This document shows positions 9,249 to 49,248 of a DNA stretch of 64,000 nt, piece by piece (within the stretch, counting starts at the first letter, position 1; each line of letters starts with the position of its first letter). The position numbers were made by a program, and so were the translations under genes. Location of the stretch: positions 254,882,001 through 254,946,000 of the forward strand of contig JBNRSN020000004.1 in assembly GCA_051313645.2 (NCBI GenBank), written 5' to 3'. The stretch comes from Centroscyllium fabricii (lineage: Eukaryota). The notes under the pieces are model-generated. The model ran no database searches, was not told where the DNA came from, and saw nothing but the letters and a program-made list of their open reading frames with translations.

Positions 9249-9884
9249 TTGTAAGAAGTCACACAACACCAGGTTATAGTCCAACAGTTTTATTTGAAAT
9301 CACAAGCTTTCGGAGCGCAGCTCCTTCCTCAGGTGAAGTGTCGAGATTCATTTAAACATAGCATATATATAGAGAGAGAGAACAATGTGGTCTCTCCAAC
9401 TGTTTCACATCACACCTCAGCAGAGAGACATCAAAGCAATCAAAGGTGTTCTAACGTATCAGTCAGCCTGAGATCAAAGGGTGCAGTCACAAAGGATCAA
9501 ACGTTACAGTCTGCTGTCTGTGAAAAACCCACAGAATGATTTTTAAAAAGGATTTTTCATTCTGTGGGATTTTCACAGACAGCAGACTGTAACGTTTGAT
9601 CCTTTGTGACTGCACCCTTTGATCTCAGGCTGACTGATATGTTAGAACACTTTTGATTGCTTTGATGTCTCTCTGCTGAGGTGTGATGTGAAACAGTTGG
9701 AGAGACCACATTGTTCTCTCTCTCTATATATATGTTATGTTTAAATGAATCTCGTCACTTCACCTGAGGAAGGAGCTGTGCTCCGAGAACTTGTGATTTC
9801 AAATAAAACTGTTGGACTATAACCTGGTGTTGTGTGACTTCTTACAATTGTCCACCCCAGTCCAACACCGGCACATCCACATCA
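9249..9884. mobile_element. Penelope-like element remnant: two inverted pseudo-LTR arms (~290 bp each) forming a palindrome
   Basis: ~9249-9540 is the reverse complement of ~9557-9849; 12-bp TSD tggtgtgtttaa at 9237-9248 and 9885-9896; hammerhead motif in each arm. Confidence 0.85.
9300..9336 (-). ncRNA. Minimal type I hammerhead ribozyme (Penelope-associated)
   Basis: Minus strand reads UCAC-CUGAGGA-A-GGAGC-UGC-GCUCC-GAAA-GCUU-GUGA: core CUGANGA/GAAA, stem II GGAGC/GCUCC, stem I UCAC/GUGA, palindromic AAGCUU stem III. Confidence 0.7.
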
Positions 9885-13582: not shown

Positions 13583-14564
13583 GATTGGCCACATCTCAAT
13601 GGAGGTGGGACTGCAACCCCGAAAGTTATAGTCCCGCCTCCTACATAACTCCTGAATGAAAATCCAGTCCTATGACTCTTTTACTCCAAAATATTTTTTC
13701 CATCTGAAAAATGAACAGTAAAAGTGTTTCTTGAAAAAATGGAAAGCAAATACCGAATTAATTAATCATTTTCAGGGCAGCACATCACAGTCAAGGACCC
13801 ATTAACTATAAACAAAGGAAAGCATTCTCTAAGTACCTTTTACCTTATTTCAGCAAAAATTAAAATTTCAGCACCAAAAGTAAAACGTGTTCAAAAAATA
13901 AAAGCTGATCATCTAACTTTATCAGCAGGACTAGGGCTTGTACTTGTAGAGTGTTCAACACATTGAGACAGACTCAGGATTGTGTGTGTTCAGCCATTGC
14001 TCGAGGCCTTGTTTAATCACTCTCACTTCCTGTTAACCCTCTGTTGCCCCCTACTGGGCAGAGGGTAACTATCACTACATCTCCCTTTGAAAACTACTCC
14101 TTTACTGTTAACATTTTCAAATTATTACCTTTTTACAGTGCTTAAGAAATAACAAACTCTAACAAACATCATAGCAACTCTAACAAATATAACATCTCTA
14201 ATACATCTCTCTTTCCTTTAAAAAAAAAGAATAATACATGCAGAGTAAGCTTGGAGGGACAAGGCAACTGCCTGAACCCTCCAACAAGTACCTCGGGTAT
14301 TATTCTGACCCAATGAGGTGTCTTGGTTCTTAAGCTATTCATGTTTCAAAGTCCTGGAGGTATGAAGGAGGCTTGCGGACCCTTTAAGGGTATCGTCTGG
14401 AACCTGAAGGAGGTGGGGTTTCCCCTGTGGGTGGGGGAGTTCCAGGACACAAATCCTCATCGTCATCATCAGGAATGGAAGGCTCATCAGTGTCTGGGGG
14501 CTGCTGTGTAAGTGCGAGGTGCCTGCGGTTCCTACGAACAATCTGGGCCTGGATATCAACCAGA

Positions 14565-14640
14565 TATTCAATTCAATTCAATTCAATTCAAGTTTTATTG
14601 TCATTGCAGAGTACTAGTACAATACAACGAGATGAAGACT
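14565..14640 (-). mobile_element. Extreme 3' end of a LINE with (TTGAA)n tail, possibly Rex1/Babar-like, inserted in the integrase end
   Basis: Reverse complement matches 61838-61913: ttgtattgtactagtactctgcaatgacaataaaac plus ttgaa repeats. Confidence 0.7.
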
Positions 14641-17600
14641 CTTGGGGTGTTGGCCTGTCCTTGCACAATGCCTCTTTTGCGGGAGTCCTGTATCCACACA
14701 TAGTCACCTGGAAGGAGTGGACACAAGTGCTTAGCTCTGTGGCGCCTGTTAAAGTTGGCCGGTTGTCTTAGTTTAGATTGTTTATCCTTGTCTGTAAAAT
14801 TCTGGAGGTCGGACCAGCCTGGGGTCAGGAGTGATGGCATAGTTGGCACGGTTGTATGAAAATTCCTGCCTTGTAGCAACTCAGCAGGGCTGAATCCGCT
14901 AGAAAGAGGTGTGGAGCGGTATGCAAGGAGTGCCCGGTATGGGTCAGGTGACCTTTTATAAAGATGTTTGGCTGTCTGGACAGCGCGCTCGGCAGCCCCA
15001 TTGCTTTGAGGATATAGAGTGCTGGATGTGACATGGGTGAAGTCCCAGCTGTCGGCAAATGAGCGAAAGGTGACCGAGGCAAATTGGGGGCAGTTATCTT
15101 TTCGGACCAGCAGTGGGACCCCTAGGCGGGCAAAGCAGCATTTCATACACTCAACGACTGCATGTGAGGTGGTGGAGGAAAGTTTGATAATTTCAATGAA
15201 CTTGGAGAAGTAGTCAAACATTACCAGGTAAATTGAGTTGTCCAAATGAAATAGATCAGCCCCAACCTTCTGCCATGGGCCCTCAGGGGTGTCATCTGGA
15301 ATCAATGGCTCTGGTGGTTGTTGTCTCATTTGGGCACAGCTTGGGCACTGTTGTAGTTTACGTTGTAATTGACCACTTAATCCAGTCCACCAGACAGAAC
15401 ACCTGGCTCGTGCTCTGCATTTTGTGATCCCTTGATGGCCATCATGCAGTTTGTCCAGAATGTCTTTCTGCATTGATGCTGGAATGACCAACTGGCACCC
15501 TTGTAGCAGCAATCCTTGTGCAATAGTGAGGTCACCTGAAACAGCTGCGTAAGGTCTAAGAGCGTTGTCAAGTTTTGCATCATCTGGCTAGACCTCACGG
15601 CAGTATGTGAAGACCTGACGAAGTAGTTCATCCGTTTCCTGTGCGTGACAAAGTGCAGCCAGGCATTTCTCGGTAATAGGCAGTGCAGTGAGTATTGAGT
15701 GTACATAATTCTCTATGCACTGCACCTCAGAGGAATCATCCACCAGCGGCTGGTAGGTTGCTCTGGAGAGGACGTCAGCAGTTGCTAGGCTCTTCTCTGG
15801 CACATGTGATATGGTGAAGTGAAAGTGCATGAGTCGCATCCGAAAGCGCTGAATGCGGGGGGACAACTCGTCCAGGTTTTTAGATCCCAATAGTGTAAGG
15901 AGGGGCTTGTGATCTGTTTCGACCTGGAATGTCATGCCTATTAGGAAGTCTCTATAGCGCTCACACGCCCATGTAATGGCCAAGGCCTCTTTCTCAATCT
16001 GCGCATAGCACTGCTCTGTTTTTGAAAGGGCTCGTGAAGCATAGGCTACAGGGCGCCAGTCAGTGTCAGGTCTCTTTTGTAAAAGGACTGCAGCCAAATG
16101 ATGAGGCATCAACTGACACTTTAGTGAGTGTATGGGGTCATACAGTGCAAGGCCTGGCGGGGTGGTTAGCTCTGTCTTTATCTCAGTGAAAGCTTGGGAC
16201 TGCTGGGGTCCCCAATACCATGAGGTCTGCCTGTTGAGGAGATCCCGGAGTGGCTTGGTTTTATCGGCTAGATGGGGTATGTATTTGACCAAGTGATTGA
16301 CCAAGCCCATGAAGCAGCGTATTTCAGATACATTCCTTGGCGCGGCAATGTGTGTGAGGGCCTTGACTTTGTCAGGATCTGCTCTGACACCGGTCCCGTC
16401 GATGACCTGGCTGAGAAATTTCACCTGTGTTTTGGCAAATTCACATTTGGAGTTGGGAGTAAGTCCAGCTTGCTGTAGTCTACTGAGAATTGCAAACAGT
16501 CGCTGATCGTGCTGTTCTTGGTTTGCGCCAAACACCAACAAATCATCCATTTGGCATAAGACACCATCAAGTCCCTCAAGGAGGCAGGACATGCGGCGCT
16601 GGAAATGCTCAGGGGCGGAGGATATTCCAAAGGGCAGTCTGTGGAAACAGTAACGTCCAAATGGCGTGATGAATGTGGTAAAACGTTTTGACTCCTCTGT
16701 CAAGGGTATTTGCCAGAAACCAGATTGAGCGTCAAGCTTTGTAAAAACCTTTGCATCTTTCAGCTGCCCCAGAGTGTGCTCTACACAGGGTAAGAGATGC
16801 AGCTCTCTACAGACACATTCATTGAGTTTTGTTAGATAAACACAGATTCTGATTTTTCCGTTGGGTTTTGGGACTACGACCATTCCGGAACACCAGGCTG
16901 TGGTTTCCTCAACTCTTGCAATTATCCCCAGTTGCTCCATGTGGGTTAGTTCCTCCTTAACTTTGGTCATAAGGGGGAGCGAGACACGTCAGTGTGTAGA
17001 GAGAGCAAAGGGTTTGACCTTCGGCTTGAGGCGAATGTGATACTCCTCTTGCAGTCGCCCAATGTCTTGAAACAGTCTGGGGAACCGCTGTCTGACCTCC
17101 TGTTCGAGATCCGTAGATACTATCTCTGCTACTTGTGGGTCCGACCTGGACACCAGACGCAGGGAACTGATGGCGGGGTGACCGAGGAGCGCTGTCCGTA
17201 GACCACGTACCACATACACAACCTGCTTTGTAGACCGTGGACCACGGGTCAGGGTAGCTGAAAATTAGCCTCATTGTTGTCGTCCTCTGATATTTCAGCA
17301 AACGCAGGTGTGGATCGGCAAACTGCAGCAAAATGCCCCTTTTTCTGGCAATTCCTGCAGCTAACATCTTTGGCTGGACAGATTTGTCTATTGTGTGTCC
17401 GGCTACATTATCTGCAACTCCACTTTTGTGCTTGGAAATTTGTTCCATTTTGAGTTCCAGTGCGAGTCCTCTGTACATATTCACGTGAGTCAGTCTGTCT
17501 TGATTTGGTTGAAAAATGTTTTTGGGGACCTGCTTGTCGGGTGGCACTTATGGTTTCAATGGACTCCCTCTCCTCATTACTACCTTTCTGAACCATTAAT

Positions 17601-18135
17601 TGCTATTTCTTTATTGTTTCACTTTGGAAAACCTGTGTTTTTGCTTTGTCAACTGTGAGGTATGGATCCATCTGTAATTTTCCAGAGAGTTTAAGATCCC
17701 TTAGTCCAACAACCAATCTGTCACGAATTAGTTCATCCCGCATATCTCCATATTCACAGTGTTCAATGAGCTCATATAGCGCTTTGATGAAGCTGTCACA
17801 CGATTCCCCTCTCTCCTGCACGCGCCTATGGAATCTTGCGCGTTCGAACATCAAATTCCTCCACGGGATAAAATGATTAGACAACTCCGTTTTAACTGTG
17901 TCATAGCTTTTCAGTTGATCAGCCGTAATATCCTGCACTGGACGATCGCTTCAGCCTCTGCTCCCATGGAATATAATAGGGTCTTAACCTGTTTTTCCTG
18001 TGCCTGTTTATCAAGGCCCAAAGCCTGGCTGAAACGTTCAAATCTGCTGATCCACAACGGCCACTCTTCCGGCCGCGTAAAATCAAACTCGGAGGGGGGA
18101 GAAATCTGAAAGAATGCAGGACTTTGAGTGGCCAT
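14640..18135 (-). pseudogene. Frameshifted gag-pol (gag, zinc knuckle, RT, RNase H, integrase); protease core deleted
   Basis: Gag W..W..RFERF, RFHRRVQERGES, IRDRLVVG; RT LPFGISSAPEHFQ, QMDD; RNase H YAQIEKEAL, ETDHKPL; integrase HDGHQG..C..C, SNGAAER. Confidence 0.9.
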
Positions 18136-19269
18136 GATTGTAAGCTAAGCACCATGGGGTAAATACACTTTTTCTTTCTCTCTCTCAGTCTCTTCTGCTT
18201 TTCTCAGTTGTGGCTTAAACAGCTATCGTAAAATTTCACTCACCGGGAGCTGACTGGTTTCACTGCGGAATTCAGTTCTATTGTGGTTTCAGATCGCAAT
18301 TCTGACACCATGAAGAGTGTTCAACACATTGAGACAGACTCAGGATTGTGTGTGTTCAACCATTGCTCGAGGCCTTGTTTAATCTCTCTCACTTCCTGTT
18401 AACCCTCTGTTGCCCCCTACTGGGCAGAGGGTAACTATCACTAAAGTACTGAGCAAACAAATGATGTAGTAGTCAGGGCTTGAGGACCAACATGGGGCTG
18501 AGTCACATGTGAAGAATAAACCCTGAGTCCTCAGACTAAATAAAAGAAAATAGGTTCAAAATAGCATTACACACAGGTGTGGCAGTCGTGTGTGATGGAA
18601 ATAATAAGGTAGAAATAGGTGTAATAGGAAATTACAGAGAATGTACACATACACAAGACTTTTAATATAATACAGATAGATATATATGTGTTAAGGTGTC
18701 ATTTTATTCAGTTTTTGGTCAGTGTTTATGTCAACAGTAGCTGTCAGATGTAACATGCTGTTCATTCATAAGGATCTAATTCCCTCTGTGTGTGACTTTA
18801 CCACACTTATTAATGCATTTGTGTTGACTTCCTACCTCTGCCAATTTTACAAAAAAGTTGTTACCGCTCTTATTTTCCATAGATTATCCCTTGTGACATT
18901 GCTGACATGTGACAGCTGTGAATGGGGAACAAGGACTCAGGGAGATTGCATCTGGGTTGAGAGTTAAGCTTGAGCAAATGCTGGTATGTGGACTGGAAAC
19001 AGAGCTACATGGGTTTATCTCCTATGTTAAGCTTGTTAGGCCAGAAATTGAACCAGAGTAGTTTGGGTGGGCCCGCAGAAAACTGACTTACCATTTTTAA
19101 TAATATAAGATCGAACAGCCCACTGCAGAGCTGGGGCATTGAGGCTCTACAGGCCGAAGCTCTGATAGTGGGAGGCAACCTCCAGCTAAAAAATACAACT
19201 CCATTAAGAGAAGAGCAATGATGCTGGTCACAGTGCCAGAGGAAAGATCCTTGAGGAATGACTTGTTAA

Positions 19270-27460: not shown

Positions 27461-28814
27461 ATGGTAAATAGATGCAGTTCAAGCACATAGAATCTTACAG
27501 CACAGAAGTAGGCCATTCGGCCCATCGTGCCTGACCCGGCTCTTTAAAAGAGCTGTCCAAATTAGTATCACACCCCAACATTTTCCCCATAACCTTGCAA
27601 ATTAGTCCTCTTCCAGTACATGTCCCATTGCCTTTTGAAAGTTCCTATGGAATCTGATTCCATCATCCTTTCAGGTAGTGCGTTCCAGATCTTAACAACC
27701 CTCCATGTGAAAACAAGTCTCCTCATTTCCCTTCTAGTTCTTTTGCCAATTATTTTAAATCTGTGACCTTTGATTACTGATCCAGTTGCCAGAGGAAACA
27801 GTTTCTCACTACTTGCTCTATTAAACCCCTCATAATTTTGAATACCTCTGTTAGGTCTCCCCTTAGCTTCTCTAGGAGAACAATTGCAGTTTCTCCAATC
27901 TTTCCACAAAATTGAAGTCCCTCATCCCTGGTATCATCCTGGTAAACCTCCTATGTACCCTCTCTGGGGCCTTGACATCTTTCCTAAAGTGTGGTGCTCA
28001 GAATTGAACACAATACTCCAGCTGAGGCCTAACCAGAGATTTGTAAAGGTTTATCATAACTTCTTTGATTTTAATTCAATGGCCCTATTTACAAAGCTAA
28101 ATATTCCACAGGCTTTCTTCACTACCTTATCAACTTGCCCTGCCACCTTCAAAGATTTGTGAAAATGCACCCTCTGTTCTTGCACCCCCCTCAAAATAGT
28201 ACCATTTAGATTATACTGCCACTCACTGTTGTTCCTTCCAAAGTGCATCACTTCACACTTATCCACATTAAATTGCACCTGCCATGTGTTTGCCCATTTC
28301 ACCAGTCTGCCTATGTCCTCCTGAAGTATGCTACTATCCAATGATTTGTATCATCCGCAAACTTCAAAATTGTACTCCCTATACCCAAGTCCAGATCATT
28401 TATATATAACAAGAAAAGCAATGATCCTAATATCGATCCCAAGGGGACCCCACTGCATGGTTCTCTCCAGTCAGAAAAATATTCATTCACCACTATTCTC
28501 TGCCTCCTAAACCTTAGCCAAACACATAACCAAGTTATCACCAACCCTTTAATACCATGTGCTTCTAATTTCTGAATGAGTCTGTTAAGTAGTGCTTTAT
28601 TAAATGCCTTTTGAAAGTGTAGCGAGGTCGCTGACTTAATTAAAAGACGACTCGTAGTTACCATTAATACTAGGCTTTTAATTAATAAAGAATAGAGGTA
28701 TCTCTTCGGTAGATTCATACTGTAAAGGCAGGAATCGAATCAGACCACAACCTTTATAGTGCTCCACCTGGAGGGAGGAGTCGGAGGTGTGGCTGACCCG
28801 CTTCCAGCAACATA

Positions 28815-31800
28815 TCAGCACACAGGTATACAACAATGGTATCCCATATAAGGGATACCCAAATATGGGTTACCACATTCACCCCTTGTTAAAAACTTTG
28901 AGTCCGGGGGGGCGGGGTGAATGCCTTGTTGAAAACTTTGAGTCCAGGGGGGAGGGGGTGAAGACAGTGAACAGTTCACAATGAGTCTCTCCGGCGGCCG
29001 CGTCTGTCTTGCCGACCGCCGGGGTTCCGATGTTGGTTGTGATGGCCCCATGGCCGAATAGTCTGCCTCCGTCGTCGATGGTAGGTCGACTTGCTGGCCA
29101 GTCGGGGGAGCCGTGGCGGTGTTGCCGGCCGGAGCCAGGTCCCTGATGGACACGGTGTCCTCACGCCCGTCTGGGAACTGCACAAAAGCATATTGTGGGT
29201 TGGCGTGTAGGAGCTGTACCTGGTCCACCAGGGGGTCCGTCTTGTGGCCCCGAACGTGCCTTTTAAGAAACACCGGCCCAGGGGTCGTCAGCCATGGTGG
29301 GAGCGCCGTCCCCGAAGATGATCTCCTGCTGAAAGAGAAAACAAGGTCGTGCGGGGTGGCATTAGTAGCTGTACATAATAACGACCTAATAGAGTGCAAT
29401 GCGCCTGGGAGGACTGCCTGCCAGTGGGACACTGGAAGGCCTCTGGACTTGAGGGCCAGGGTGACCGCCTTCCAGATAATCCCATTCTCCCTTTCTACCT
29501 GGCCGTTCCCCCGGGGGTTGTAACTGGTCGTTCTGCTCGTGGCAACCCCTTTCTGGAGCAGGAACTGACGCAGTTCATCGCTCATGAACGATGACCCCCG
29601 GTCGCTATGGATGTAGCTGGGGAAACCGAAGATGGCGAACAGCGTGGTGAAGTGTTTGATCACCGTTGCGCTCGTCATGTCTGGGCAGGGGAAGGCGAAG
29701 GGGAAACGGGAGAACTCGTCCACTACCGTGAGGAAGTATGAGTTGCGGTCGGTGGAGGGAAGGGGGCCTTTGAAGTCTACGCTGAGGCGTTCAAAGGGGC
29801 GAGTGGCCTTAATGAGGTGCGCCGTGTCTGGCCGGAAAAAGTGGGGTTTGCACTCAGCGCAGACAGGGCAATCTCGGGTCATATCCTTGATCTCCGTGAT
29901 GGAGTAGGGGAGATTATTAGCTTTGACAAAATGGGCGAGTCTGGTGACACCCGGGTGGCAGAGGCGGTCGTGGAGGTCCTTCAGCCGGTCTAGCTGGGCA
30001 CTGGCGCACGTTCCCCTGGACAGTGCGTCCGGTGGTTCATTGAGTTTACCTGGTCGGTAAAGAATGTCATACTCGTAAGTCGAGAGTTCGATCCGCCACC
30101 GCATGATCTTGTCATTCTTGATTTTACCCCGTAGTTTATTGTTAAACATAAACGCCACCGACCGTTGGTCGGTGAGCAGGGTAAAACGCTTACCGGCCAG
30201 GTAATGACGCCAGTAGCGCACGGCCTCCACAATGGCCTGGGCCTCCTTTTCCACTGCTGAGTGGCGAGTTTCGGGTCCCTGTAAGGTGCGGGAGAAAAAC
30301 GCTACGGGCCTGCCTGCCTGATTCAGGGTGGCAGCAAGGGCAAAGTCCGAAGCGTCACTCTCCACCTGGAAAGGGATGGATTCATCAACAGCGTGCATGG
30401 TCGCCTTGATGATATCTCCTTTTATCTTTTCGAATGCCGTTTGAGCTTCTATAGAAAGAGGGAAGACGGCAGCCTTGAGGAGTGGTCTAGCCTTGTCTGC
30501 GAACTGCGGGACCCATTGTGCATAGTAGGAGAACAATCCTAGAGATCTCTTCAAGGCTTTGGGGTTGTGAGGTAGGGGCAGTTCCTGAAGGGGTCGTATA
30601 CGCTGTGGGTCGGGGCCAAGGACCCCGTTCTCCACCACATATCCGAGGATGGCGATCCGGGTTGTATTAAAGACACATTTGTCTTTGTTATACGTAAGGT
30701 CCAGCTTAGCCGCCGTGTCAAGAAATTTGGCTAGGTTGGCATCGTGGTCTTGCTGGTCGTGGCCGCAGATGGTCACGTTGTCCAGGTAGGGGAAAGTGGC
30801 CTGCAAGTCATTTTGATCAACCATACAGTCCATCTCCCGCTGGAACACTGACACTCCGTTGGTCACGCCAAAGGGGACCCGGAGGAAGTGGTAGAGCCGA
30901 CCGTTCGCCTCGAAGGCGGTGTAGGGGCGGTCAGCTCTCCGGATCGGGAGCTGGTGATACGCCGATTTAAGGTCGATCGTGGAGAACACCTTGTACTGGG
31001 CGATCTGATTGACCATTTCCGAGATGCGGGGAAGGGGGTAGGCGTCGAGCCCGGTGTAGCGGTTAATGGTCTGGCTGTAATCGATAACCATCCGATGTTT
31101 CTCGCCAGTCTTAACGACTACAACCTGGGCCCGCCAGGGGCTGGTGCTGGCTTCAATAATCCCCTCCTTTAGCATCCGCCCGACCTCCGACCTGATAAAC
31201 GTGCGGTCCCCCTCGCTGTACCGCCGACTCTTAGTGGCGATAGGTTTGCACTTCGGATCGAGGTTGGCGAACAGCGAGGGGGGATCGATTCTCAGGGTGG
31301 AGAGGCCGCAGGCCGGGGTCCGCTTTGGGGGGAGATTGTCCCGGCTACTGAGGGTGAGTGGGGGAAGGGTCCCGCCGAACTCCATTGTCACACTCCTGAA
31401 GTGGCACAGGAAGTCCAGACCTAGTAAGGCTGGGGCACACAACTGCTGGAGGGTATACAATTTAAAATTACGGTACACGCGTCCCTGGACGGTGAGCGTG
31501 ACGGAGCAGTAGCCGGTGACGTCCGCGGTGTGGGACTGTGAAGCTAATGAGACCTGGTAGTTAGTGGGCAGGACCTGCAGTCCGAAGCGCCGCACTGTAT
31601 TAGGGTTTATGAAGCTTTCGGTGCTGCCCGTGTCAAAAAGGCATTCAACCGTGTGATCGTTGATCTTGATTGGCCTTATGGAGTTAGACAGGGTGTGGGG
31701 ATTGTCCTGGCTAACTGTAGATCCGGTCGCCGCAGCCCCTGCCGCAGGGAGCTGCGCACAAAATGGCCACCCCCCTGGTTTGCACATGGAGGGGACCTGA

Positions 31801-33266
31801 CAAAATGGCCGCCCCGCACAAAATGGCTGCCCCCCACAAAATGGCCGCCCCCCTGGCTTGCACATGGAGGGGACCTGACAAAATGGCCGCCCCCCTGGCT
31901 TGCACAGGGGGGTGCCTGGGGGAAGACAAGATGGGGCTAACATCCCATTCACAGTACTGGCCTGTATCGAGTGACCTGAGGGAAGACAAAACGAGGTTAG
32001 TTCAGTTTGTGCTGGTTCTTTTGAGCCGCCAGTACTGGCCTGCATCGGGTGACCTGAGGGAAGACAAAACGAGGTTAGTTTAGTTCGTGCTGGTTCCTGC
32101 TGACACGGTGCCCGCAGCTCCCCGCTGTCCTGAGCCGCCGGCAGCTCCCGCTGTGCTGGCTCTGGCTGGATGGGAGCGGGTATCGAGGCTCTTGAGCCGC
32201 CGGCAGCTCCCGCTGTGCTGGCTCTGTCGGCGTTGGCTGGATGGGAGCGGGGATCGAGGCTCTTGAGCCGCCGGCAGCTCCCGCTGTGCTGGCTCTGTCG
32301 GCGTTGGCTGGATGGGAGCGGGGATCGAGGCTCTTGAGCCGCCGGCAGCTCCCGCTGTGCTGGCTCTGTCGGCGTTGGCTGGATGGGAGCGGGGATCGAG
32401 GCTCTTGAGCCGCCGGCAGCTCCCGCTGTGCTGGCTCGGTCGGTCGCGTCGGGATGGGAGCGGGGATCGAGGCTCTTGAGCCGCCGGCAGCTCCCGCTGT
32501 GCTGGCTCGGTCGGTCGCGTCGGGATGGGAGCGGGGATCGAGGCTCTTGAGCCGCCGGCAGCTCCCGCTGTGCTGGCTCGGTCGGTCGCCGTGCCGGCGG
32601 CGCTCCTAACTGGCCCGCAGTCGGCCGCGTTGTAGGATCTCGTCTGAGGCCGGTCGGTCGCCTCGGGATGGGGGAAGGGGGCACTCGCCGTTGGTGAGTA
32701 ATACTGCAATTGCAGCTTACCTGAGCCTCCTGCCCGTGCTGGTTGATTTCACAGGCTGTTTGCTGGATTTCACTGCAAATGCCGTTTGTCTGCTGGTTGA
32801 TTTCACAGGCTTTGTTGTTCCTTTTTGATGCTAGATTCGATCTGCAGAGCTTTGAAAAGTGCCCTTTCTTGGAACATTTGTCACAGGTTGCCGTCTTGGC
32901 TGGACACTTTGCCCTGGGGTGCAATCCTTTGCCGCAAAAATAGCATTGTCTATGCTTAGTGTCCGTGGTGGCCGTCGCGGCCCTGGTGGGGCTCTCAATC
33001 CGTGGCGCCTGTTGGGTCGCGGCCCAAACGTAGTACCTCTTGAGGGTCGCCACCGTTTCCACGTAGGTTGTATGTTTCTCAATGAGGGCGAAAACCCTGC
33101 CGGAGATGGTTGTTAGCAGTACTCGTAGTTTTTGCGTATCCGATTCAGCCCTGACGGCCGCCATATAGGCCTCTAGTGCTCCGAACCAGAGCTTGAAGGT
33201 GATCGGTGCCGCGGCCTCCCGGGGGCTAATGCTCAGCTCCTGAGGCCTTACCGTGCTGCTCTCCAT
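28815..33266 (-). CDS. Single Gag-Pol polyprotein, 1483 aa (short Gag, two zinc knuckles, repeat linker, protease, RT, RNase H, integrase)
   Basis: CYFCG..H...C and CDKCSKKGHFSKLC; LFDTGS; IDLKSAYHQ, VPFG, YLDN; ESDAS/VEKE/LTDQ; HHCC, VDFKGP, HSDRG, GQVEREN; uninterrupted. Confidence 0.93.
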   Translation of the reverse strand: MESSTVRPQELSISPREAAAPITFKLWFGALEAYMAAVRAESDTQKLRVLLTTISGRVFALIEKHTTYVETVATLKRYYVWAATQQAPRIESPTRAATATTDTKHRQCYFCGKGLHPRAKCPAKTATCDKCSKKGHFSKLCRSNLASKRNNKACEINQQTNGICSEIQQTACEINQHGQEAQVSCNCSITHQRRVPPSPIPRRPTGLRRDPTTRPTAGQLGAPPARRPTEPAQRELPAAQEPRSPLPSRRDRPSQHSGSCRRLKSLDPRSHPDATDRASTAGAAGGSRASIPAPIQPTPTEPAQRELPAAQEPRSPLPSSQRRQSQHSGSCRRLKSLDPRSHPANADRASTAGAAGGSRASIPAPIQPEPAQRELPAAQDSGELRAPCQQEPARTKLTSFCLPSGHPMQASTGGSKEPAQTELTSFCLPSGHSIQASTVNGMLAPSCLPPGTPLCKPGGRPFCQVPSMCKPGGRPFCGGQPFCAGRPFCQVPSMCKPGGWPFCAQLPAAGAAATGSTVSQDNPHTLSNSIRPIKINDHTVECLFDTGSTESFINPNTVRRFGLQVLPTNYQVSLASQSHTADVTGYCSVTLTVQGRVYRNFKLYTLQQLCAPALLGLDFLCHFRSVTMEFGGTLPPLTLSSRDNLPPKRTPACGLSTLRIDPPSLFANLDPKCKPIATKSRRYSEGDRTFIRSEVGRMLKEGIIEASTSPWRAQVVVVKTGEKHRMVIDYSQTINRYTGLDAYPLPRISEMVNQIAQYKVFSTIDLKSAYHQLPIRRADRPYTAFEANGRLYHFLRVPFGVTNGVSVFQREMDCMVDQNDLQATFPYLDNVTICGHDQQDHDANLAKFLDTAAKLDLTYNKDKCVFNTTRIAILGYVVENGVLGPDPQRIRPLQELPLPHNPKALKRSLGLFSYYAQWVPQFADKARPLLKAAVFPLSIEAQTAFEKIKGDIIKATMHAVDESIPFQVESDASDFALAATLNQAGRPVAFFSRTLQGPETRHSAVEKEAQAIVEAVRYWRHYLAGKRFTLLTDQRSVAFMFNNKLRGKIKNDKIMRWRIELSTYEYDILYRPGKLNEPPDALSRGTCASAQLDRLKDLHDRLCHPGVTRLAHFVKANNLPYSITEIKDMTRDCPVCAECKPHFFRPDTAHLIKATRPFERLSVDFKGPLPSTDRNSYFLTVVDEFSRFPFAFPCPDMTSATVIKHFTTLFAIFGFPSYIHSDRGSSFMSDELRQFLLQKGVATSRTTSYNPRGNGQVERENGIIWKAVTLALKSRGLPVSHWQAVLPGALHSIRSLLCTATNATPHDLVFSFSRRSSSGTALPPWLTTPGPVFLKRHVRGHKTDPLVDQVQLLHANPQYAFVQFPDGREDTVSIRDLAPAGNTATAPPTGQQVDLPSTTEADYSAMGPSQPTSEPRRSARQTRPPERLIVNCSLSSPPPPWTQSFQQGIHPAPPDSKFLTRGECGNPYLGIPYMGYHCCIPVC
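32127..32590. repeat. 71-bp tandem array (~6.5 copies) inside the gag-pol ORF
   Basis: ctcttgagcc recurs at 32189, 32260, 32331, 32402, 32473, 32544; one shortened 62-bp unit near 32127. Confidence 0.95.
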
Positions 33267-33754
33267 TGTAAAAATTATTAATTAAAATTGTAGCGAGGTC
33301 GCTGACTTAATTAAAAGATGACTCGTAGTTACCATTAATACTAGGCTTTTAATTAATAAAGAATAGAGGTATCTCTTCGGTAGATTCATACTGTAAAGGC
33401 AGGAATCGAATCAGACCACAACCTTTATAGTGCTCCACCTGGAGGGAGGAGTCGGAGGTGTGGCTGACCCGCTTCCAGCAACATATCAGCACACAGGTAT
33501 ACAACAATGGTATCCCATATAAGGGATACCCAAATATGGGTTACCACAGAAAGTAATATATATAACACCTACTGCACTATCTTCATCAACCATCGCTGTT
33601 ACTTCATCAAATAAATTAATCAGGTTAGTCAGACATGATTTGCCATTAACAAATCTGTGTTGGTTCTCTCTTATTAACCCATGCTTCTACAAGTGAGAAT
33701 TCACTTTGTCCTTGACAATGGTCTCTAGTAGTTATTCCACTACTGACATTAGAC

Positions 33755-36638: not shown

Positions 36639-36809
36639 GGATAGATTTTGACTTTGTGCAATAGTGTAATTCAGATGATAGCAAATCGGCAACCCGTTTC
36701 ATATCACTCCCAATTTGAATTCAATGAAAATGAAAATCGGGAGAGATGTGAAATGGGCTGCTGATTTGCTATCAATTGTTTTACACTATCGCACAAATTC
36801 AAAATCTAC
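36639..36809. repeat. ~170-bp imperfect palindrome (hairpin MITE)
   Basis: tagattttgactttgtgcaatagtgtaa...gatagcaaatcggcaaccc pairs with gggctgctgatttgctatc...ttacactatcgcacaaattcaaaatcta. Confidence 0.85.
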
Positions 36810-39403: not shown

Positions 39404-42400
39404 TGTAGTGCATGCAGGCCTGAAGAACCACGCTAGAGACAGTGAGATCAGATAACACTCATTTAATAGTTTACACTGCAAGGGCCAGGTAGCGAAGAGA
39501 CTGAGCTACCTGGAACAGGCATATTTAAAGGGCCCGTGGTTGGTGACGTCACTGCCGGATGTCCCGGTGACATCATCACGCCGGAAGTCGCGGTGACGTC
39601 ATCACGCCGCCCAGCGGGCGGGGCCGTGTCCCGCAGTACTCCCGAGGCGGATTCGTTGGTCTTGGTGGGCGTGTCGCCACACAGCTCCCCCCCAGAATCT
39701 GTGAGGGAGAATAAAGTTAAAAATAAAAAAAGGGAGAATAAAATAAAAATAAAAAAATGGAGCATAAAAGGTGAGTCTCAGGCGAGGCGTTGCGGTGGCC
39801 GGATGATGCGGTCGGCACGTGTCGTGCGCTGCTCCTTGTTCTGCGTGGGAGTGTGGGCGAGCTTTGGTGCGGTAGGGCGTCCGCGTTTTGGTGGCTGCGC
39901 GGGGACTGTTGTCTCACCCGCCATTACATGTGCCGGTTTGAGCCGGTCAATCGAGACAGTCTCCGTTCTGTTGCCCATTTTGATTTGGAATGTCTTAGGT
40001 CCCTCTGTACGGTCCATCGTACGGTGGCTGTAGTGGTGTTCGATGTGCGTCATGGCGGACAAACCCATATTTGGCGTTCTTGATGCCGTCTGGAACACGT
40101 GCTGCCGGCTCTCCGTGCCGGGCCACCGGGAGTGGTTTGAACGCCCCTGCCTGATTGTTAAATTCCTTGAGGCAGTGGTCGGCTGACCAGGGGGCGTTGG
40201 GTTCTGCGACGAACTCGCCTGGTACGGTTAGGGGTTGGCCATAGACGAGTTCCGCCGCTGAGGCGTGCAGGTCTTCCTTGGCCGCTGAGCGTAGGCCGAG
40301 CATTACCCAGGGCAGGCGGTCGGTCCAGGTTGCGTCCTTAAGGCTGGCCCGCAGGGAAGCTTTGATGGAGCGGTGGAACCGTTCGCAGAGGCCATTGGCC
40401 TGTGGCTGGTAGGCGGTGGTTCGGTGCAGGGTTGCCCCGAGGTCGTGGGCGATGGTCGCCCATAGGGTTGAGGTAAATTGGGGGCCCCTGTCCGACGTGA
40501 TGTCGGTGGATACGCCGAAACGTGCGACCCAGGTGGCGATGAAGGCCCTGGCCAGGTCCGCGGTGGTGGTAGCGGTGAGTGGGACCGCTTCTGGCCAGCG
40601 GGTGCTGCGGTCGACCATTGTCATGACGTGTGTATGTCCCCGTGATGGCGGTAGTGGTCCGACCAGGTCGATGTGGACGTGGCTGAAGCGTTTAGCTGGA
40701 ATGGCGAACGTTTCTAGTGGTGCCTTGATGTGCTTGTGCACCTTGGCGCGCTGGCAGGCAGTGCAGGCGTTGGTCCAGGCGCGGACATCCTTGCACAGGC
40801 CGTGCCAAACGAAACGTGCCGAAATCAGCTTAGTGGACGCGCGGACGCCGGGGTGGGACAGGTCATGGAGGGTCTGGAAGATGTGTCGCCTCCATGCGTG
40901 GGGGACGACGGGTCTGGGCTGCGGGAGGGAGACGTCGCAGCGGACCGCCGTGGCTGTGGGCCCGTGTGCTACGGTGGCCAAGTGCAGGCCGGGGATGTTG
41001 GTAGCTGGGTCGAGCAGATCAGGGTCGGTCAGTTGGTCGGCCGCCAGTTTGGCGTAGTCGACGGCCGTTTGTACGGAGTTGATGGTGGGGCGTGACAGGC
41101 AGTCAGCAACCACGTTGTCGCGGCCGGCGATGTGCTGTATGTCGGTGGTAAACTCCAACACAGCCGCGAGCTGGAGCTGCTGCCTGGCCGACCAGGGTTC
41201 GGCAATCGTAGCCATTGCTGACACGAGTGGCTTGTGATCTACGAAGGCTGTAAAATGGCGGCCCTCTAGGAGGAAGCGGAAGTGGCGCACTGCGAGGTAG
41301 AGAGCGAGTAGCTCCCTATCGAAGGCACTGTACTTGACCTCCGGGGGCCGGAGTTGCTGGCTGAAAAAGGCCAGCGGTTGCCAGGAGTTGCCTGTCCACT
41401 GCTCGTAGACTGCTCCGACGGCGTAGTCGGAGGCGTCGGTGGTGAGGGCCACTCTGGCGTTGGGCCTAGGGTGGGCTAGGAGCGTGGCATTGGCCAGGGC
41501 GGTTTTGGTTGCGGTGAAGGCGGTGGTGGCTTCGGCCGTCCACTCGACCGCAGCCTTGTTGGACTGCCCGCGGGTGGCCTGATAGAGGGGTGCCATGAGA
41601 GCGGCTGCTCCTGGGATGAAGCGGTTATAAAAATTAACCATCCCAAGGAATTCCTGCAGCCCCTTGATGAAGTGCGGGCGGGGTAATTCCTGGACCGCCT
41701 GCACCTTGGAGGGCAGGGGTATGGCCCCGGTCTGGGAAATGCGGTGGCCGAGGAAGTCGATCATCTCGAGGCCGAACCGACATTTGGAGGGGCTTAATAT
41801 AAGGCCGTGTTCGACCAGGCGTTTGAACAGGGTCCTGAGATGGAGGAGGTGTTCCTGGGGGGAGGTGCTGGCCATGAGGATGTCGTCCAGGTAGACGAAT
41901 GTGAACTGCAAGTCCCGTAGGACTGAGTCCATGAGGCGTTGGAAGGCCTGGGCCGCGTTTTTAAGTCCGAAGGGCATTCGGAGAAACTCGAAAAGGCCGA
42001 AAGGGGTAATGACGGCTGTCTTAGGGACGTCCGCCGGGTGCACTGGTACCTGGTGGTAGCCCCGTACCAGGTCGATCTTTGAAAAAATCGTGCAGCCGGC
42101 TAGCCTTGCTGAGAAGTCTTGGATGTGGGGTACGGGGTACCTGTCTGGGGTGGTGGCGTTGTTGAGGCGGCTGGAGTCTCCGCAGGGGCGCAAGCCACCG
42201 CCGGGTTTGGGGGCGATGTGGAGGGGAGAGGCCCAGGGGCTGCTGGAGCGGCGGATTATGCCGAGTTGTTCCATGATGTGGAACTCGGTACGCGCGATCT
42301 CCAGCTTGGCCGGGTCCAGCCTGCGTGCGTGGGCATGGACTGGAGGGCCTGTGGTGGTGATGTGATGCTCCACCCCATGCTTGGCCGTGCGGGCTGTGAA

Positions 42401-43967
42401 GGTGGGGTTGGTGAGGGCTGGGAACTCCGCGAGGAGCGTGCCGTACGTGTCGGAGTTCCGGGCTCGGCAGTGGGGCGCTGTGTGGGCCTGGTGTGCCGGC
42501 CCTCTGGAGCATGGGATGGTCGACATGTTATGGATGTCGACCAGGCGGCGCTGGGTCACGTCGACCAGTAGACCGTGGGCGCAAAGAAAATCAGCCCCGA
42601 GGTGGGGTAGTTTGACTTGGGCTGTGATGAAGTCCCACTGGTATGTGTGGCCTGCTAGCTTGATGGTGAGCTTGCGGGTGCCGTACGTAACTATCTCGGA
42701 GCCATTTGCGGCTTCGAGTGGTGGGCCTTGGGTGCCTTGCTTGGTTTCTGCGGGGGAGGCTGGCACAATGCTGTGCTGCGCGCCTGTGTCGCAGAGGAAG
42801 AGGAGGCCTGAGCCGTTGTCCGTGACGAAGAGCAGTGCTCCAGAGCGGCCTACGGACATGGTGGGGCTTGAGCTGGGTTGGGGTTTGAAGGTGCAGGGCT
42901 GGACGCAGCGCTGCGCTTTAGCTTCAAACCTGGTGTGGTAGTAACACCAGCCGGGGCCTGTTGTGCGCGGCTTTTTGCGGGTGCGCACTGGCCTGGGTTC
43001 AGACTTGGGGCCGGACCTGGGGTGCGCGTAGTAGTGCTCCGGTGCCGTGGCAGTGGGCTCGCACGTGGCGGCTCGGGAGCGCTCGGCCCTCATCAGCTTG
43101 TCGGCCTCCTCAGCCAGTTGCTCTTTACTGTAGTGGTAGGGGATCGTCAGAGCCGGTCTGACGGAGGGAGGCAGTTTGAGGAGGAACAAGGTGCGCTTAA
43201 TGGTGGCCGGGTCGCAATTGAGCGCTTCCATTTGGGCCCAGAGGTCCGATGGGTCTGCGTCCCCGAGTTCGTGGCGTTTAATGAGCTGGCAGTCGCGCTC
43301 AAACTGGGAGGGGATGAATTTCTTTAGCAGCGCGGCCTTAAGGAATTCGTACCTGCCAGCGGTTGGTTCGTGCTGTATCATTGGCCACATTCGGTCGACC
43401 GTGGTCTGTGATAGGGCCGCGAAGAGCAGGTTGTATCGATCGTCCCCCTGTACGCCATGGATGCGGTAGGTGTTCTCCGTGCTGAGGAACCAGGCCGCTG
43501 GACGTAGTTCCCAGAACTCTGGCAGGGTTGGTATTTGGCCGGAGTTCTGGCCCAGTCTGTGAATTCGCGCTGTTTGGCTCCCTGCTGGCATGTTGGTGGG
43601 GAGTGTACTGAGGCAGCTTGGCCCTCAGTCCTGCAGCAACTGCTTCATTATGTTCCCTTGGCAGTCGTTCCAAGTATTGAGGTCACCACTGTAGTGCATG
43701 CAGGCCTGAAGAACCACGCTAGAGACAGTGAGATCGGATAACACTCATTTAATAGTTTACACTGCAAGGGCCAGGTAGCGAAGAGACTGAGCTACCGGGA
43801 ACAGGCATATTTAAAGGGCCTGCGGTTGGTGACATCACTGCCGGATGTCCCGGTGACGTCATCACGCCGGAAGTCGTGGTGACGTCATCACGCCGCCCGG
43901 CGGGCTGAGCCGTGTCCCGCAGTACTCCCGAGGCGGATTCGTTGGTCTTGGTGGGCGTGTCGCCACA
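39404..43967 (-). mobile_element. Ty3/Gypsy LTR retrotransposon, CsRn1-like
   Basis: 278-bp LTRs 39404-39681 and 43690-43967 (~10 mismatches by eye); 4-bp TSD agag/agat; PBS TGGTGACC (tRNA-Trp type); G-rich polypurine tract. Confidence 0.95.
39995..43591 (-). CDS. Gag-Pol polyprotein, 1198 aa, with a frameshift near the integrase C-terminus
   Basis: Gag LPEFW...PAAWF, CYYH..F...A..C..PC knuckle; LCDTGA; IDLVRGYHQ, MPFG, YLDD; TTDAS; HIDLVGP, TSDRG, NGLCER; tail continues in 39778..40098. Confidence 0.85.
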   Translation of the reverse strand: MPAGSQTARIHRLGQNSGQIPTLPEFWELRPAAWFLSTENTYRIHGVQGDDRYNLLFAALSQTTVDRMWPMIQHEPTAGRYEFLKAALLKKFIPSQFERDCQLIKRHELGDADPSDLWAQMEALNCDPATIKRTLFLLKLPPSVRPALTIPYHYSKEQLAEEADKLMRAERSRAATCEPTATAPEHYYAHPRSGPKSEPRPVRTRKKPRTTGPGWCYYHTRFEAKAQRCVQPCTFKPQPSSSPTMSVGRSGALLFVTDNGSGLLFLCDTGAQHSIVPASPAETKQGTQGPPLEAANGSEIVTYGTRKLTIKLAGHTYQWDFITAQVKLPHLGADFLCAHGLLVDVTQRRLVDIHNMSTIPCSRGPAHQAHTAPHCRARNSDTYGTLLAEFPALTNPTFTARTAKHGVEHHITTTGPPVHAHARRLDPAKLEIARTEFHIMEQLGIIRRSSSPWASPLHIAPKPGGGLRPCGDSSRLNNATTPDRYPVPHIQDFSARLAGCTIFSKIDLVRGYHQVPVHPADVPKTAVITPFGLFEFLRMPFGLKNAAQAFQRLMDSVLRDLQFTFVYLDDILMASTSPQEHLLHLRTLFKRLVEHGLILSPSKCRFGLEMIDFLGHRISQTGAIPLPSKVQAVQELPRPHFIKGLQEFLGMVNFYNRFIPGAAALMAPLYQATRGQSNKAAVEWTAEATTAFTATKTALANATLLAHPRPNARVALTTDASDYAVGAVYEQWTGNSWQPLAFFSQQLRPPEVKYSAFDRELLALYLAVRHFRFLLEGRHFTAFVDHKPLVSAMATIAEPWSARQQLQLAAVLEFTTDIQHIAGRDNVVADCLSRPTINSVQTAVDYAKLAADQLTDPDLLDPATNIPGLHLATVAHGPTATAVRCDVSLPQPRPVVPHAWRRHIFQTLHDLSHPGVRASTKLISARFVWHGLCKDVRAWTNACTACQRAKVHKHIKAPLETFAIPAKRFSHVHIDLVGPLPPSRGHTHVMTMVDRSTRWPEAVPLTATTTADLARAFIATWVARFGVSTDITSDRGPQFTSTLWATIAHDLGATLHRTTAYQPQANGLCERFHRSIKASLRASLKDATWTDRLPWVMLGLRSAAKEDLHASAAELVYGQPLTVPGEFVAEPNAPWSADHCLKEFNNQAGAFKPLPVARHGEPAARVPDGIKNAKYGFVRHDAHRTPLQPPYDGPYRGT

Positions 43968-44764: not shown

Positions 44765-47700
44765 TGTGGTAATATTGAACAGACTTCCGGGGGAAGGCTA
44801 AGGGGTGAACTCTGTATATGTCACTTCCTGTTTTCTGTTAGTATAAATACTGGAACTGCTCAGTATGGGGTGAACGCTTCACCTGGAAGCATGGTAAAAC
44901 CTGTCTTTGTACATAGTGATAATATAGTGGATTTGCTTTAAGTTATTGATGTATCAGACTCCATTATTACATCAATTTAATCCACTAAAAACTTCATGCT
45001 CAAAATCCTTAAAACTTTTGGACAGCACGGAACTGAGGATCTAGGGACCAACCCATCATGGAAAGCCTCCTCAAACCGACTCGCCTGGATCTGGACCCAA
45101 ATGCACCAGCAGCTGCCATGGTATGGAAGCATTGGTTCCATACTTTTGAGAATTTTCTTGAAGAATGTTGTGAGGATACCTCTACCAAGTACGATTACTT
45201 GTGAATTATGTCCCCAAACATATATGAATATGTTGATAAATGGGATAACTATAATGAGGTAATCCAAGCACTGAAAGAACTATATACTAAGGCCCCAAAC
45301 GAGGTCTATGCTAGACATTTACTGTCCACGGCCCAACAAAGGCCAGGGCAATCGAGTCATGAGTTCCTTCAAGAACTTCGCAGGCTCAGTGTAGATTGTA
45401 ATTTTAAGTCAGCCTCGGCTGAGGTGTACGGCGAACAAATGATTCGAGATGCTTTCATCTGCGGGATCGCCTCTCCATTTATATGCCAGCGTCTGCTAGA
45501 GAGGAAAACGCTTGAGCTATCAAAGGGTTTTGACCTGGCTTGTTCCCTGGACATGGCAAAAAAAAATGCAGACCTCTATCAGCTGCCCAGATCTCGAACT
45601 GCTGCTGCAACTGCAATCAGACCATTCAAGGGGCCTCAGGTGGACCCTATCATGGAAGAATCTAGTCCTGATGAGTTCAGTGATGAGGAGGAGGATGACC
45701 CCACTTTAGCAGCCTCTTGGCAATCTAGGAAGAAATGCTTCTTTTGTGGAGACTCTTTCCACCTTAGGAAATTCTGCCCTGCTCACAATGCAATCTGCAG
45801 TCATTGCAGTAAAAAGGGACACTTTGCAAAAGTTTGCCAATCAAGAGCCTCTACGAGGGCCTATCAAACTAAGGCCTACCGAGCTGCCCCAATTAGGGCC
45901 TATCAAGATGCTCCAGCTAGGACCTATCGAGCTCCCTCCCGAAGAAACACACCTAGAATTACAGCCTCCCTCTGTGCAACCACACCAATTACAGCTGCCT
46001 GCCCTCAAAATTTATTTCATGCAGCTACAAAAGTCTTGATTAATGGGCATACCTTTGATGCCTTAATTGACTCAGGAATTACTGATAGTTTCATTAGAAA
46101 ACAGATTGTTGAGAAATTGAAACTACATGTCTTCCCATTGGACCAGGCAATTGCAATGGCTCAGTCATCACTTAATACCAGAATCTCCGGCTTTTGTATT
46201 ACTGACATGACACTTAATGGCCGCATGTATCCCTCCACTCAGCTCTCAGTGCTCAAGGACCTATGTAGTGATCTTATCCTAGGGCTGGATTTTCAAAAAC
46301 AGCATAAAAAAACTCATCATTGAGTTTGGCGGTTCCAAACCTGGACTTACTATTTCTAATATAACGTCTAAATCACCATTTTGTGCACTGTCAGCAGCCT
46401 CACTTGATGAACCCTCATTATTCACCAGTATTCCTCCTCAATGCAAACCAATAATAACCAAATCTCGACGCTTCAGTCAGGAAGATCAATCTTTCATTGA
46501 GACAGAAATCTCTCGTCTTTTAGCAGAGGACATCATCGAACCATGTTCATCGCCCTGGCGGGCTCAAATCGTCATCATTAAGAACCCTCTAAAACCTCAC
46601 AAAAAATGACTATGCATTGATTACTCTCAAACCGTCAATCAAAATACTGACCTGGACGCCTACCCATTGCCACGCATTGATGACATGGTTAATAAACTGG
46701 ATGAATACAAAGTGTTCTCAACCTATGATTTAAAGAGTGCCTATCATCAGGTACCCTTACGGGTCTCAGATAAAATTTTTGTCGCCTCCCATTCGGGGTC
46801 ACTAATGGAGTGGCTGTCTTCCAATGGGCAATGGATGGCCTCGTTGAGCAGGAAAACTTAAGGGATACTTTTCCCTACCTTAATAACATTACTGTTGCAG
46901 GCCACGACCAGCAGGAACATGATGCCAACCTCCAAAGATTTCGGGATGCTCTCCATCACCGTAACTTAACTTTAAATGAATCCAAATCTGTGGAATCGCA
47001 ACCGACCATCAACATTCTTGGCTACTGCTTAGGCAATGGTATCATTAAACAAGACCCGGAAAGACTTCGCCCGCTCCAGGAGCTCCCCCCACCTAACAAT
47101 CCAGCTTCTTTACGTCGGGCCCTCGGTCTGTTTGCATACTGCGCTAAATGGATTCCGAATTTTTCAGATAAAATTCAGCCCTTGCTGAATGCTAGAACAT
47201 TTCCGTTGGGTACAGTGGCTGATGCAGCCTTTAACCTTCTCAAGAAACAGTTGGAGAAAGCGACTCTTCACTCCATCAATGAGGACCTCCCTTTCGTAGT
47301 CGAATGTGATGCCTCGGAGGTGGTGATCTCAGCTATTCTAAATCAAGAAGGCCGTCCTGTAGCATTCATGTCCAGGACCTTACAAGGTGCCGAGATACAT
47401 TATCCTCTGGTTGAGAAGGAAGCCACAGCCATCATAGAGGCAGTACGGAAGTGGAACCATTTCCTAGCTCGCATTTACATTAATCATGGACCAGTGATCA
47501 GTCGCCTTCATGCTCGATAATCGAAAGCGAACTAAAATTAGGAACAATAAAATACAGCTTTGGAGGATGGAATTGGCCTCTTTTGGTTACACCATTCACT
47601 ATCGACGTGGCAAAGAGAATGTGGCCCCGGATACCCTCACACGCTCTGCTATGTCATCCTCTACTCTCATAGACATCCATGGTGGATTGTGTCATCCTTG

Positions 47701-49248
47701 CGTGACTCGCATGCTACATTTCGTGCGATCACGGAATCTCCCATTTTCTACTAGAGATATAAGAAAATGTGCTCCGAATGCCGAACTTGTGCAGAATTGA
47801 AACCTCAGTTCTTCCACCCCCAGATGGTGCGCACATACACGCAACCCAACCAATGCAACGACTTAGCGTCGACTTCAAGGGCCCATTGCCCTCTTCAACA
47901 CAGAACACATATTTGCTCACAATGATCGATGAATATTCACGATTTCCGTTTGCCTTCTCCTGCTCCAATATGCTGGCATCCACTGTAATCAACTGCCTTG
48001 AGCAAGTATTTTCTCTTTGTGGCATTGCAGCCTACATTCACTCGGATCGGGGTCCATCTTTTATGTCAAGCGAACTGAAGGACTACCTCTCAGAACGGGG
48101 AAATGCGACAAGCAAAACGATGCCATACCATCCCATCGGGAATGGACAGGTAGAGAGATATAACTGAATCATCTGGAATTCCGAGCCTACCCATCCAGCA
48201 ATGGGAAGCAGTGCTTCCGGATGCATTACACTCTATACGGTCCCTTGTGTCTACAGCCACAAATACTACACCTCATGAACGGTTCTTTGGATTCCAGCAT
48301 CGCTCATCTTATGGGGCATCTATTCCATCATGGCTAACTACTCAGGGACCCATACTGCTCCGAAGATACGTTCGGACATCTAAAAATGACCCTCTCGTAG
48401 ATGAGGTCAAACTAACTGATGCCAACCCTACCTATGCCTACATATGATATCCCAACGGTTGAGAGTCTACCGTATCATTGCGGGACCTGGCACCCTGCCC
48501 ACCAGGACCTAGAGGGACACCAAGGGATAATATCCTACCAGGGGCCTCCAGGGACCCACTGGGTACCACTCTCCAGGACCCGGATCTGACCCCAACTAGC
48601 TTTGCGCCGGTCAAATCCCACACTCAAAGTTACGACCCGCCAAGTACCTCTTTCGAGGACACTGATCAGACACCAACCAACTCTGAGCCCGTGGGGGCTC
48701 ATACACGGAGTCATGATCCTCCCAGTGCCTCACGCCAAAGTGCCAATTGGCCGCAGACCAGCTCTGTGCCTTCCCTTGACCAGGGACAAACCAGCTCTGC
48801 ACCTATTGGAGCTTGTAAGCGGAGCCATGATCTCCCCGACCCTTCACAGGGTAATCCAGGCCATGTGGGTTCTGACCCGTGGCCAACAGCAGGTAAACGG
48901 TCCAGAGACCCAAACATTGTCCATAGGGACGGACCATCAACCCAGCAATGAGAACTCAAATGGGTGCGTCTCCTCCTTGTTCGGCTACTCCGGAATAAAA
49001 AGAAGCTTCCCGCCTTTTAATTTTGCAGGAGGGAAGAATGTGGTAACATTGAACAGACTTCCGGGGGAAGGCTATGGGGTGAACTCTGTACATGTCACTT
49101 CCTGGTTTCTGTTAGTATAAATACTGGAACTACTCAGTATGGGGTGAACGCTTCACCTGGAAGCATGGTAAAACCCGTCTTTATACATAGTGATAATGTA
49201 GTGGATTTGCTTTAAGTTATTGATGTATCAGACTCCATTATTACATCA
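44765..49248 (+). mobile_element. Decayed Ty3/Gypsy element, same lineage as 28618-33548
   Basis: 210-bp LTRs 44765-44974 and 49039-49248; 5-bp TSD gggag; polypurine tract gcaggagggaagaa; no TGG PBS. Confidence 0.95.
45058..48950 (+). pseudogene. Disrupted gag-pol
   Basis: Gag ARHLL..QQRPGQS, IRDAFICG, CFFCG, CSHCSKKGHFAKVC; LIDSG; YDLKSAYHQ, FPYLNN; ECDAS, VEKE; VDFKGP, HSDRG, GQVERYN; several stops and frameshifts. Confidence 0.9.

Follow-up and report, generated by a model that had tools for sequence, protein, structure and literature searches.

The window, that is the whole 64,000-nucleotide stretch of Centroscyllium fabricii DNA analysed here, carries an LTR retrotransposon on its reverse strand between positions 28613 and 33553. 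Its 260-nt LTRs differ at a single site, as noted in the initial annotation, and a 5-bp target-site duplication flanks it on either side. All of its domains are encoded in one frame. The features of the element are the following.

28613..28617, strandless: target-site duplication, left copy (5 bp)
28618..28877, reverse strand: 3' LTR, 260 nt, one difference from the 5' LTR
28815..33266, reverse strand: single gag-PR-RT-RNase H-IN frame of 1,483 codons, ATG at 33266, stop at 28815
28878..28887, reverse strand: polypurine tract adjoining the 3' LTR
29514..29804, reverse strand: integrase core, no chromodomain downstream
30075..30380, reverse strand: RNase H domain, all four acidic residues present and near-invariant among relatives
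30636..31112, reverse strand: RT core (RVT_1), first catalytic Asp kept (STIDLKSAYHQ)
30777..30788, reverse strand: RT motif C, YLDN, from the sequence and the alignment to the YLDD of Ty3
31407..31670, reverse strand: aspartyl protease domain
32079..32646, reverse strand: 71-nt tandem repeats, in frame, in the interval between zinc knuckles and protease
33029..33030, reverse strand: junction of an in-frame Gag deletion, 108 residues compared with a sibling, shared by at least 1,219 genomic copies
33275..33287, reverse strand: primer-binding position, +2 to +14 past the 5' LTR, not tRNA-like, complementary to the element's own LTR
33289..33548, reverse strand: 5' LTR, 260 nt, TG...CA
33347..33359, reverse strand: 13-nt LTR stretch pairing with the primer site, ATTAAA at its 3' end, predicted self-primer (copy in the 3' LTR at 28676-28688)
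33549..33553, strandless: target-site duplication, right copy (5 bp)

At 30777-30788 of the reverse strand, TAC CTG GAC AAC encodes YLDN, with Asn replacing the third catalytic Asp of the RT. This earlier reading was confirmed both by the sequence and by a gap-free alignment to the YLDD of the Ty3 RT (PDB 4OL8), which is the best PDB match and thus the closest solved structure (E 6e-47) and ranks above caulimovirus and retroviral RTs. The element has TG...CA LTRs, a short target duplication, a polypurine tract and the order PR-RT-RNase H-IN, all of them Ty3/Gypsy traits, and in the RT tree the other Gypsy elements of the window are outgroups. Two usual traits are missing, the YxDD motif and the tRNA primer site, neither of which is required for membership. 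BEL/Pao membership was rejected: no Pao-type Pfam family matched and the RT is Ty3-like. Among named proteins, those of sharks and rays come closest, with about 82% identity, and proteins of relatives measure 1,175-1,290 aa. A search of IMG/VR yielded no relative, and matches in the protein atlas were confined to generic RT/RNase H clusters. At the distal end, the polyprotein frame continues for about 60 nt inside the 3' LTR (28815-28877), past a short duplication near the purine tract. We identify the element as a young Ty3/Gypsy-type LTR retrotransposon belonging to a widespread animal clade whose RTs end the YxDD motif in either Asn or Asp.

The polyprotein had been described as otherwise intact. 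Its frame is indeed open from 33266 to 28815, but the 108 residues of Gag that the sibling has are gone, with the junction near 33030. Correspondingly, the LTR end and the zinc knuckle are separated by 343 nt in the window copy versus 651-791 nt in nearly all other readable copies. The claim of recent mobility holds as far as the single LTR difference is concerned; it is no proof that the element's own proteins sufficed, because Gag is partly deleted. Two Gag-complete YLDN elements with unbroken frames were found, each with identical LTRs. Within the Gag-deleted subfamily, the pol changes shared between copies amounted to 8 synonymous versus 2 non-synonymous, in a small and biased sample. Judged by its sequences, this subfamily likely borrows its capsid and uses its own enzymes, and the capsid would probably be taken from Gag-complete siblings, which themselves bear Asn. 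The subfamily is very young and has kept an open pol. Judged by siblings, the part it lost is the second half of the capsid, and behind the zinc knuckles it carries a variable 71-nt tandem insert.

In the C. fabricii genome, Asn is the family state. An exact 27-nt pattern around the motif matched 62,834 Asn sites versus 78 Asp sites genome-wide, and these counts reflect neither chance nor assembly error. Control single A>G changes in the same pattern gave 130 sites (Asn to Ser) and 289 sites (first Asp to Gly); thus, Asp copies occur no more often than random mutants would. With a degenerate motif pattern we counted 227,352 Asn versus 451 Asp sites, a ratio of about 500 to 1. When the motif codon was removed, 19 Asp copies lay scattered among 19 Asn copies in the resulting tree (38 of 41 copies were used for the tree and the selection count, 3 were dropped). 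In the RT of the 19 Asn copies, the changes common to at least three copies comprised 73 synonymous versus 14 non-synonymous ones (omega 0.058), while singleton changes had an omega of 0.56. The shared changes thus display strong purifying selection, with an omega of about 0.06. Since the replicating lineages kept their RT under selection, this argues against passive copying by a helper. Among close siblings, 11 of 16 LTR pairs were identical, 2 differed at one site and 3 at two (20 siblings had been chosen for long frames; 16 were resolved and 4 dropped). One further search, in which 150 of 150 matches were identical, is biased by design and was left out of the state counts.

The window contains a second, decayed element of the same clade.

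44765..49248, forward strand: decayed element of a second family, 210-nt LTRs, 5-bp duplication, broken frame
46876..46887, forward strand: its YLNN motif (family state YLDN)

The initial annotation had pointed to this relative and to the Asn at its fourth motif position, and both are present. All 20 fetched copies of the second family read YLDN (19) or FLDN (1). The first Asn of YLNN is therefore private decay, and the Asn at the fourth position is the lineage state. Together with the 62,834 versus 78 sites and the purifying selection, these 20 copies uphold the view that Asn characterises the lineage and did not arise by decay.

We then looked beyond this genome. Among the 120 matches listed in one set of homologues, 94 had YxDN, 25 Asp-Asp and 1 another motif; among the 120 listed in a second set, 82 had Asp-Asn, 33 Asp-Asp and 5 other motifs. 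Named hosts of Asn elements include sharks, rays, corals, an anemone, a sea slug, a fluke, a tapeworm and Trichinella, and those of Asp elements include a damselfly, a spider and Trichuris. Ten clusters at 90% identity each showed a single fixed state, a lone YLEN member being the exception; both states are thus found in lineages that replicate. Of 272 RTs, 258 were binned by identity (14 were dropped for short cover): at 70% or above, 12 of 12 carried Asn, between 40 and 69% the states were mixed, and below 40%, 39 of 39 carried Asp. Parsimony required at least 17 state changes on the RT-RNase H tree (162 rows) and 22 on the RT tree, mostly in the direction Asn to Asp (17-18 versus 4-5). These are FastTree topologies of modest support whose sampling is centred on an Asn query, and tips account for 16 of the 22 changes. 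Thus, as judged from these trees, the RTs of the clade carry either residue at the last YxDD position and have switched about 20 times. The idea that YxDN might define a clade is not supported by the data, because Asp and Asn lineages are interleaved. Elements of the window clade also turned up in contigs filed as bacterial MAGs (L167-L177; P0011, P0052), which most likely represent host contamination of the assemblies.

The suspicion of unusual priming is supported. No tRNA-type primer site follows the 5' LTR of the window element, and no tRNA gene lies within the 64-kb window; instead, the primer site pairs with the element's own LTR. Perfect pairing over 12-19 nt between primer site and LTR was detected in 37 of 47 resolved elements. 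Overall, 110 loci were examined, both LTR ends were resolved in 47 and 63 were dropped; 17 of 46 metagenome loci were entered into the LTR-end search. The LTR-end finder favoured AT-rich starts and could therefore have missed a tRNA-type site; no TGG site is visible in the rows without resolved ends. As controls, the 21 distinct primer sites were compared with the LTRs of other elements, which paired in 2 of 420 cases, and with shuffled LTRs, which paired in 0 of 4,200. Three other LTR elements in the window gave 7, 4 and 0 pairs.

Several further repeats share the window. Two decayed LTR elements with TGG primer sites served as controls, one at 13945-18443 on the reverse strand, which has the motif QMDD and which we take to be Mag-like, and one at 53080-56171. 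A Gypsy element at 39404-43967 on the reverse strand, presumably CsRn1-like, has 278-nt LTRs at 96%, a YLDD motif, a TGG primer site and a frame of 1,209 codons. A LINE-type element at 1118-8500 (reverse strand) has frames for endonuclease and RT (YADD) as well as long frames upstream, and near 7790-8490 it carries tandem repeats of 52-53 nt. At 9237-9859 lies a 303-nt inverted repeat whose arms are 96% complementary and 17 nt apart, and an 80-nt inverted repeat at 36642-36808 resembles it.

The pairing begins at +2 past the LTR in all 21 distinct primer sites, and among 26 distinct combinations the paired stretch terminates in ATTAAA (16), AATAAA (8) or GTTAAA (2), with its end 35-61 nt before the LTR end. 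To avoid circularity, we also located the LTR site by its own motif alone, which anchored 37 of the 47 elements (the 10 unanchored ones were dropped). Of 12 possible pairs, these had 12 in 29 cases, 11 in 7 and 10 in 1. The mean over the 26 distinct combinations was 11.65 of 12 pairs versus 8.56 for permuted partners (maximum 9.69 in 10,000). Where TATA-like boxes are present, at least 70 nt separate them from the paired stretch downstream; the primer therefore may not consist of the RNA's first bases. At one locus (L074) the interior seems reversed relative to the LTR pair, the primer site and the purine tract each lying on the side opposite to the usual one. Perhaps two oppositely oriented copies are involved there, one contributing the RT match and the other the LTRs.

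This co-variation of primer site and LTR suggests self-priming of the Tf1 type, and minus-strand synthesis is likely primed on the element's own RNA rather than on a tRNA. The duplex might alternatively do no more than hide the 5' poly(A) signal, or control the nearby start codon, with another RNA acting as primer. We consider this unlikely, although of all the alternatives it fares best. A poly(A) hexamer ends the stretch in 26 of 26 combinations, the ATG of the window copy lies no more than about 20 nt further on, and the TATA spacing places no RNA start at the paired stretch, all of which would fit such a role. But pairing from +2 in all 21 sites is where the 3' end of a primer must sit, no tRNA-type site was seen, and the paired sequence varies among subfamilies too freely to match any fixed host RNA.

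The initial annotation asked whether YxDN co-occurs with loss of the primer-binding site. A separate, decayed YLDD family of the same clade exists in the same genome (29 among the 100 Asp matches listed), and it shows the same primer-site pairing. Of its 14 fetched copies 13 read YLDD, with 50-62% identity to the window RT, and all 13 have broken frames. Pairing extends over 15 nt in two of the four LTR-bearing copies and is short in the other two, one of which has an insertion. Since this family has the same pairing, priming of this kind is clade-wide and not tied to Asn. In one copy (L148 of L147-L160) an insertion lies a few bases into the primer site.

Compensating changes linked to the unusual priming had also been proposed. 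The YLDD family pairs alike, and we found no residue that compensates at each switch: none of the visible columns among the most associated in RT and RNase H passed a test of independent pairs, which is weak with 13 pairs. Compared with ordinary Gypsy RTs, for which Ty3 was the reference, both states share WRAQ for xSP, DYSQTIN for DYRxLN, NGV for NAP, and HDxN. These clade-wide residues arose in one nested event, and several of them presumably occupy template-contacting positions in HIV-1 numbering. Two residues past the motif, Thr occupies the position in 135 of the 144 sequences with Asn and in 49 of the 74 with Asp. Together with this Thr, the clade-wide residues are candidates for a permissive background.

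In the version of the initial annotation, changes linked to priming compensate for Asn, so that both traits depend on each other. This appears improbable, and more so than a role of the duplex restricted to the poly(A) signal. Both traits do occur in one clade, Thr past the motif is more frequent with Asn, and the passages on Ty1 and Tf1 place the Ty1 suppressors in RNase H, the domain that makes the Tf1 primer. Against this stand the 15-nt pairing in two of four LTR-bearing copies of the YLDD family and the absence of any visible column passing the 13 independent pairs. A one-way dependence may nevertheless apply, in which self-priming came first and Asn was tolerated later.

It is very improbable that the RT of Asn copies is dead or crippled and that an Asp helper copies them in trans. 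Such a helper could be sought in the true YLDD family, and the window subfamily, which is without part of its Gag, likely needs outside help. However, Asn prevails over Asp by about 500 to 1, Asp variants within the family are rarer than the neutral controls, purifying selection acts on the RT in Asn lineages, the 13 copies reading YLDD in the YLDD family are all frame-broken, and Asn is fixed in elements of many other animals. Finally, first-base editing of AAC would produce an Asp codon and Asn can deamidate, but restoration of Asp by A-to-I editing or by deamidation is just as improbable, because edited RNA would return as Asp insertions, yet Asp is rarer than the control mutants, and because the residue after the motif is Val or Ile, a context in which deamidation is slow.

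We therefore return to the explanation that we favour, with a probability of roughly 0.7 on sequence evidence: the Asn enzyme is likely functional, the element likely primes itself, and the clade carries either residue. Catalysis would rest on the other two Asp, the third position requiring only Asp or Asn, and the permissive setting would consist of the clade-wide changes common to both states. We infer that, using these two Asp, the Asn enzyme polymerises well enough in vivo. For priming, the LTR stretch of 12-19 nt that ends in the poly(A) hexamer would pair with the primer site, starting at +2, and cleavage past the 3' edge of the paired stretch, probably by RNase H as in Tf1, would yield the primer. 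This duplex probably also masks the poly(A) hexamer, though in the 5' LTR alone. A more far-reaching combination of these points remains tentative and is rather less likely to hold in full: an old animal Ty3/Gypsy clade whose RT has been rebuilt to make the third Asp optional and freely interchangeable with Asn, in which self-priming evolved apart from chromoviruses, in which one duplex serves as primer and silences the 5' poly(A) signal, and whose Asn form is among the largest parts of the 7.2-Gb genome (roughly a tenth of it or more, provided that the 227,000 matches are mostly full length).

Within the Ty3/Gypsy elements, the window clade may correspond to Cigr-1 (Ciona intestinalis, molluscs, annelids; RepeatMasker class Gypsy-Cigr). 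The founder of Cigr-1 is said to have LTRs of about 245 bp, a length of about 4 kb and one frame of about 1,200 codons. The size and single frame of the relatives fit this description, a likeness in traits that are not diagnostic. Cigr-1 has been reported from several phyla (PMC6238403, PMC8556966); the passages and supplements of these papers that were searched contain nothing on YxDN or the primer site, and a term search of PMC2774666 gave no mention of Cigr. No paper on YxDN or self-priming in the window clade was found in a search outside which lay most subscription journals as well as Repbase and GyDB. Both natural YxDN (BEL/Pao) and self-priming (Tf1/sushi) have precedents.

The closest experimental parallel to the motif is Ty1 D211N. 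The relevant passages of PMC2148107 describe RTs as universally having three Asp and report that Ty1 cannot do without the other two Asp but tolerates Asn at the third position in vitro. D211N kept polymerase activity, blocked transposition and lowered kpol 223-fold, and suppressors in RNase H brought back 5-10% transposition (PMC2148107); the Ty1 comparison in the initial annotation agrees with these statements. The position is the same and the enzyme still polymerises, but D211N is an engineered change that blocks transposition unless suppressed, whereas here Asn occurs naturally and predominates. Arguments about what the third Asp does have drawn on engineered mutants in which Ty1 transposition is abolished. 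In the window clade, selection acts on many natural Asp and Asn enzymes that are close relatives of each other, and the question thus becomes approachable without engineered changes.

A natural YxDN was implied to be new, but YVDN is already published as a mark of nematode belpaoviruses (10.1101/2021.11.23.469668). According to the passages of that source, Atlas virus and its BEL/Pao relatives resemble the window element in having a natural YVDN in intact elements with identical LTRs, and differ in superfamily, in an env gene and in a polyprotein of 2,828 residues; these passages describe no switching between Asp and Asn. Screens that score non-YxDD elements as dead would misfile a very large family.

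For priming, the known systems are the Tf1/Tf2 elements, the Tf1/sushi and Tcn1 chromoviruses and the plant copia element TAR, for which self-priming and LTR motifs are reported in passages of PMC6317226, PMC6934838, PMC7175516 and PMC3601003. As in the window clade, their primer site is complementary to their own LTR. In Tf1, RNase H frees the primer and the duplex measures 11 nt according to the same passages, in contrast to 12-19 nt in the window clade, where the stretch has a poly(A) hexamer as its last bases and stops 35-61 nt short of the LTR end. The Tf1 primer consists of the RNA's first bases, for which the TATA spacing in the window clade gives no clear support. Tf1/sushi chromoviruses have an integrase chromodomain, whereas none was found by Pfam at E 0.1 in the window protein, its C-terminus or four relatives; the element would therefore work like Tf1 but is not filed there. 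The pairing extends probable self-priming to an animal clade without a chromodomain and hints at a link between priming and the choice of poly(A) site.
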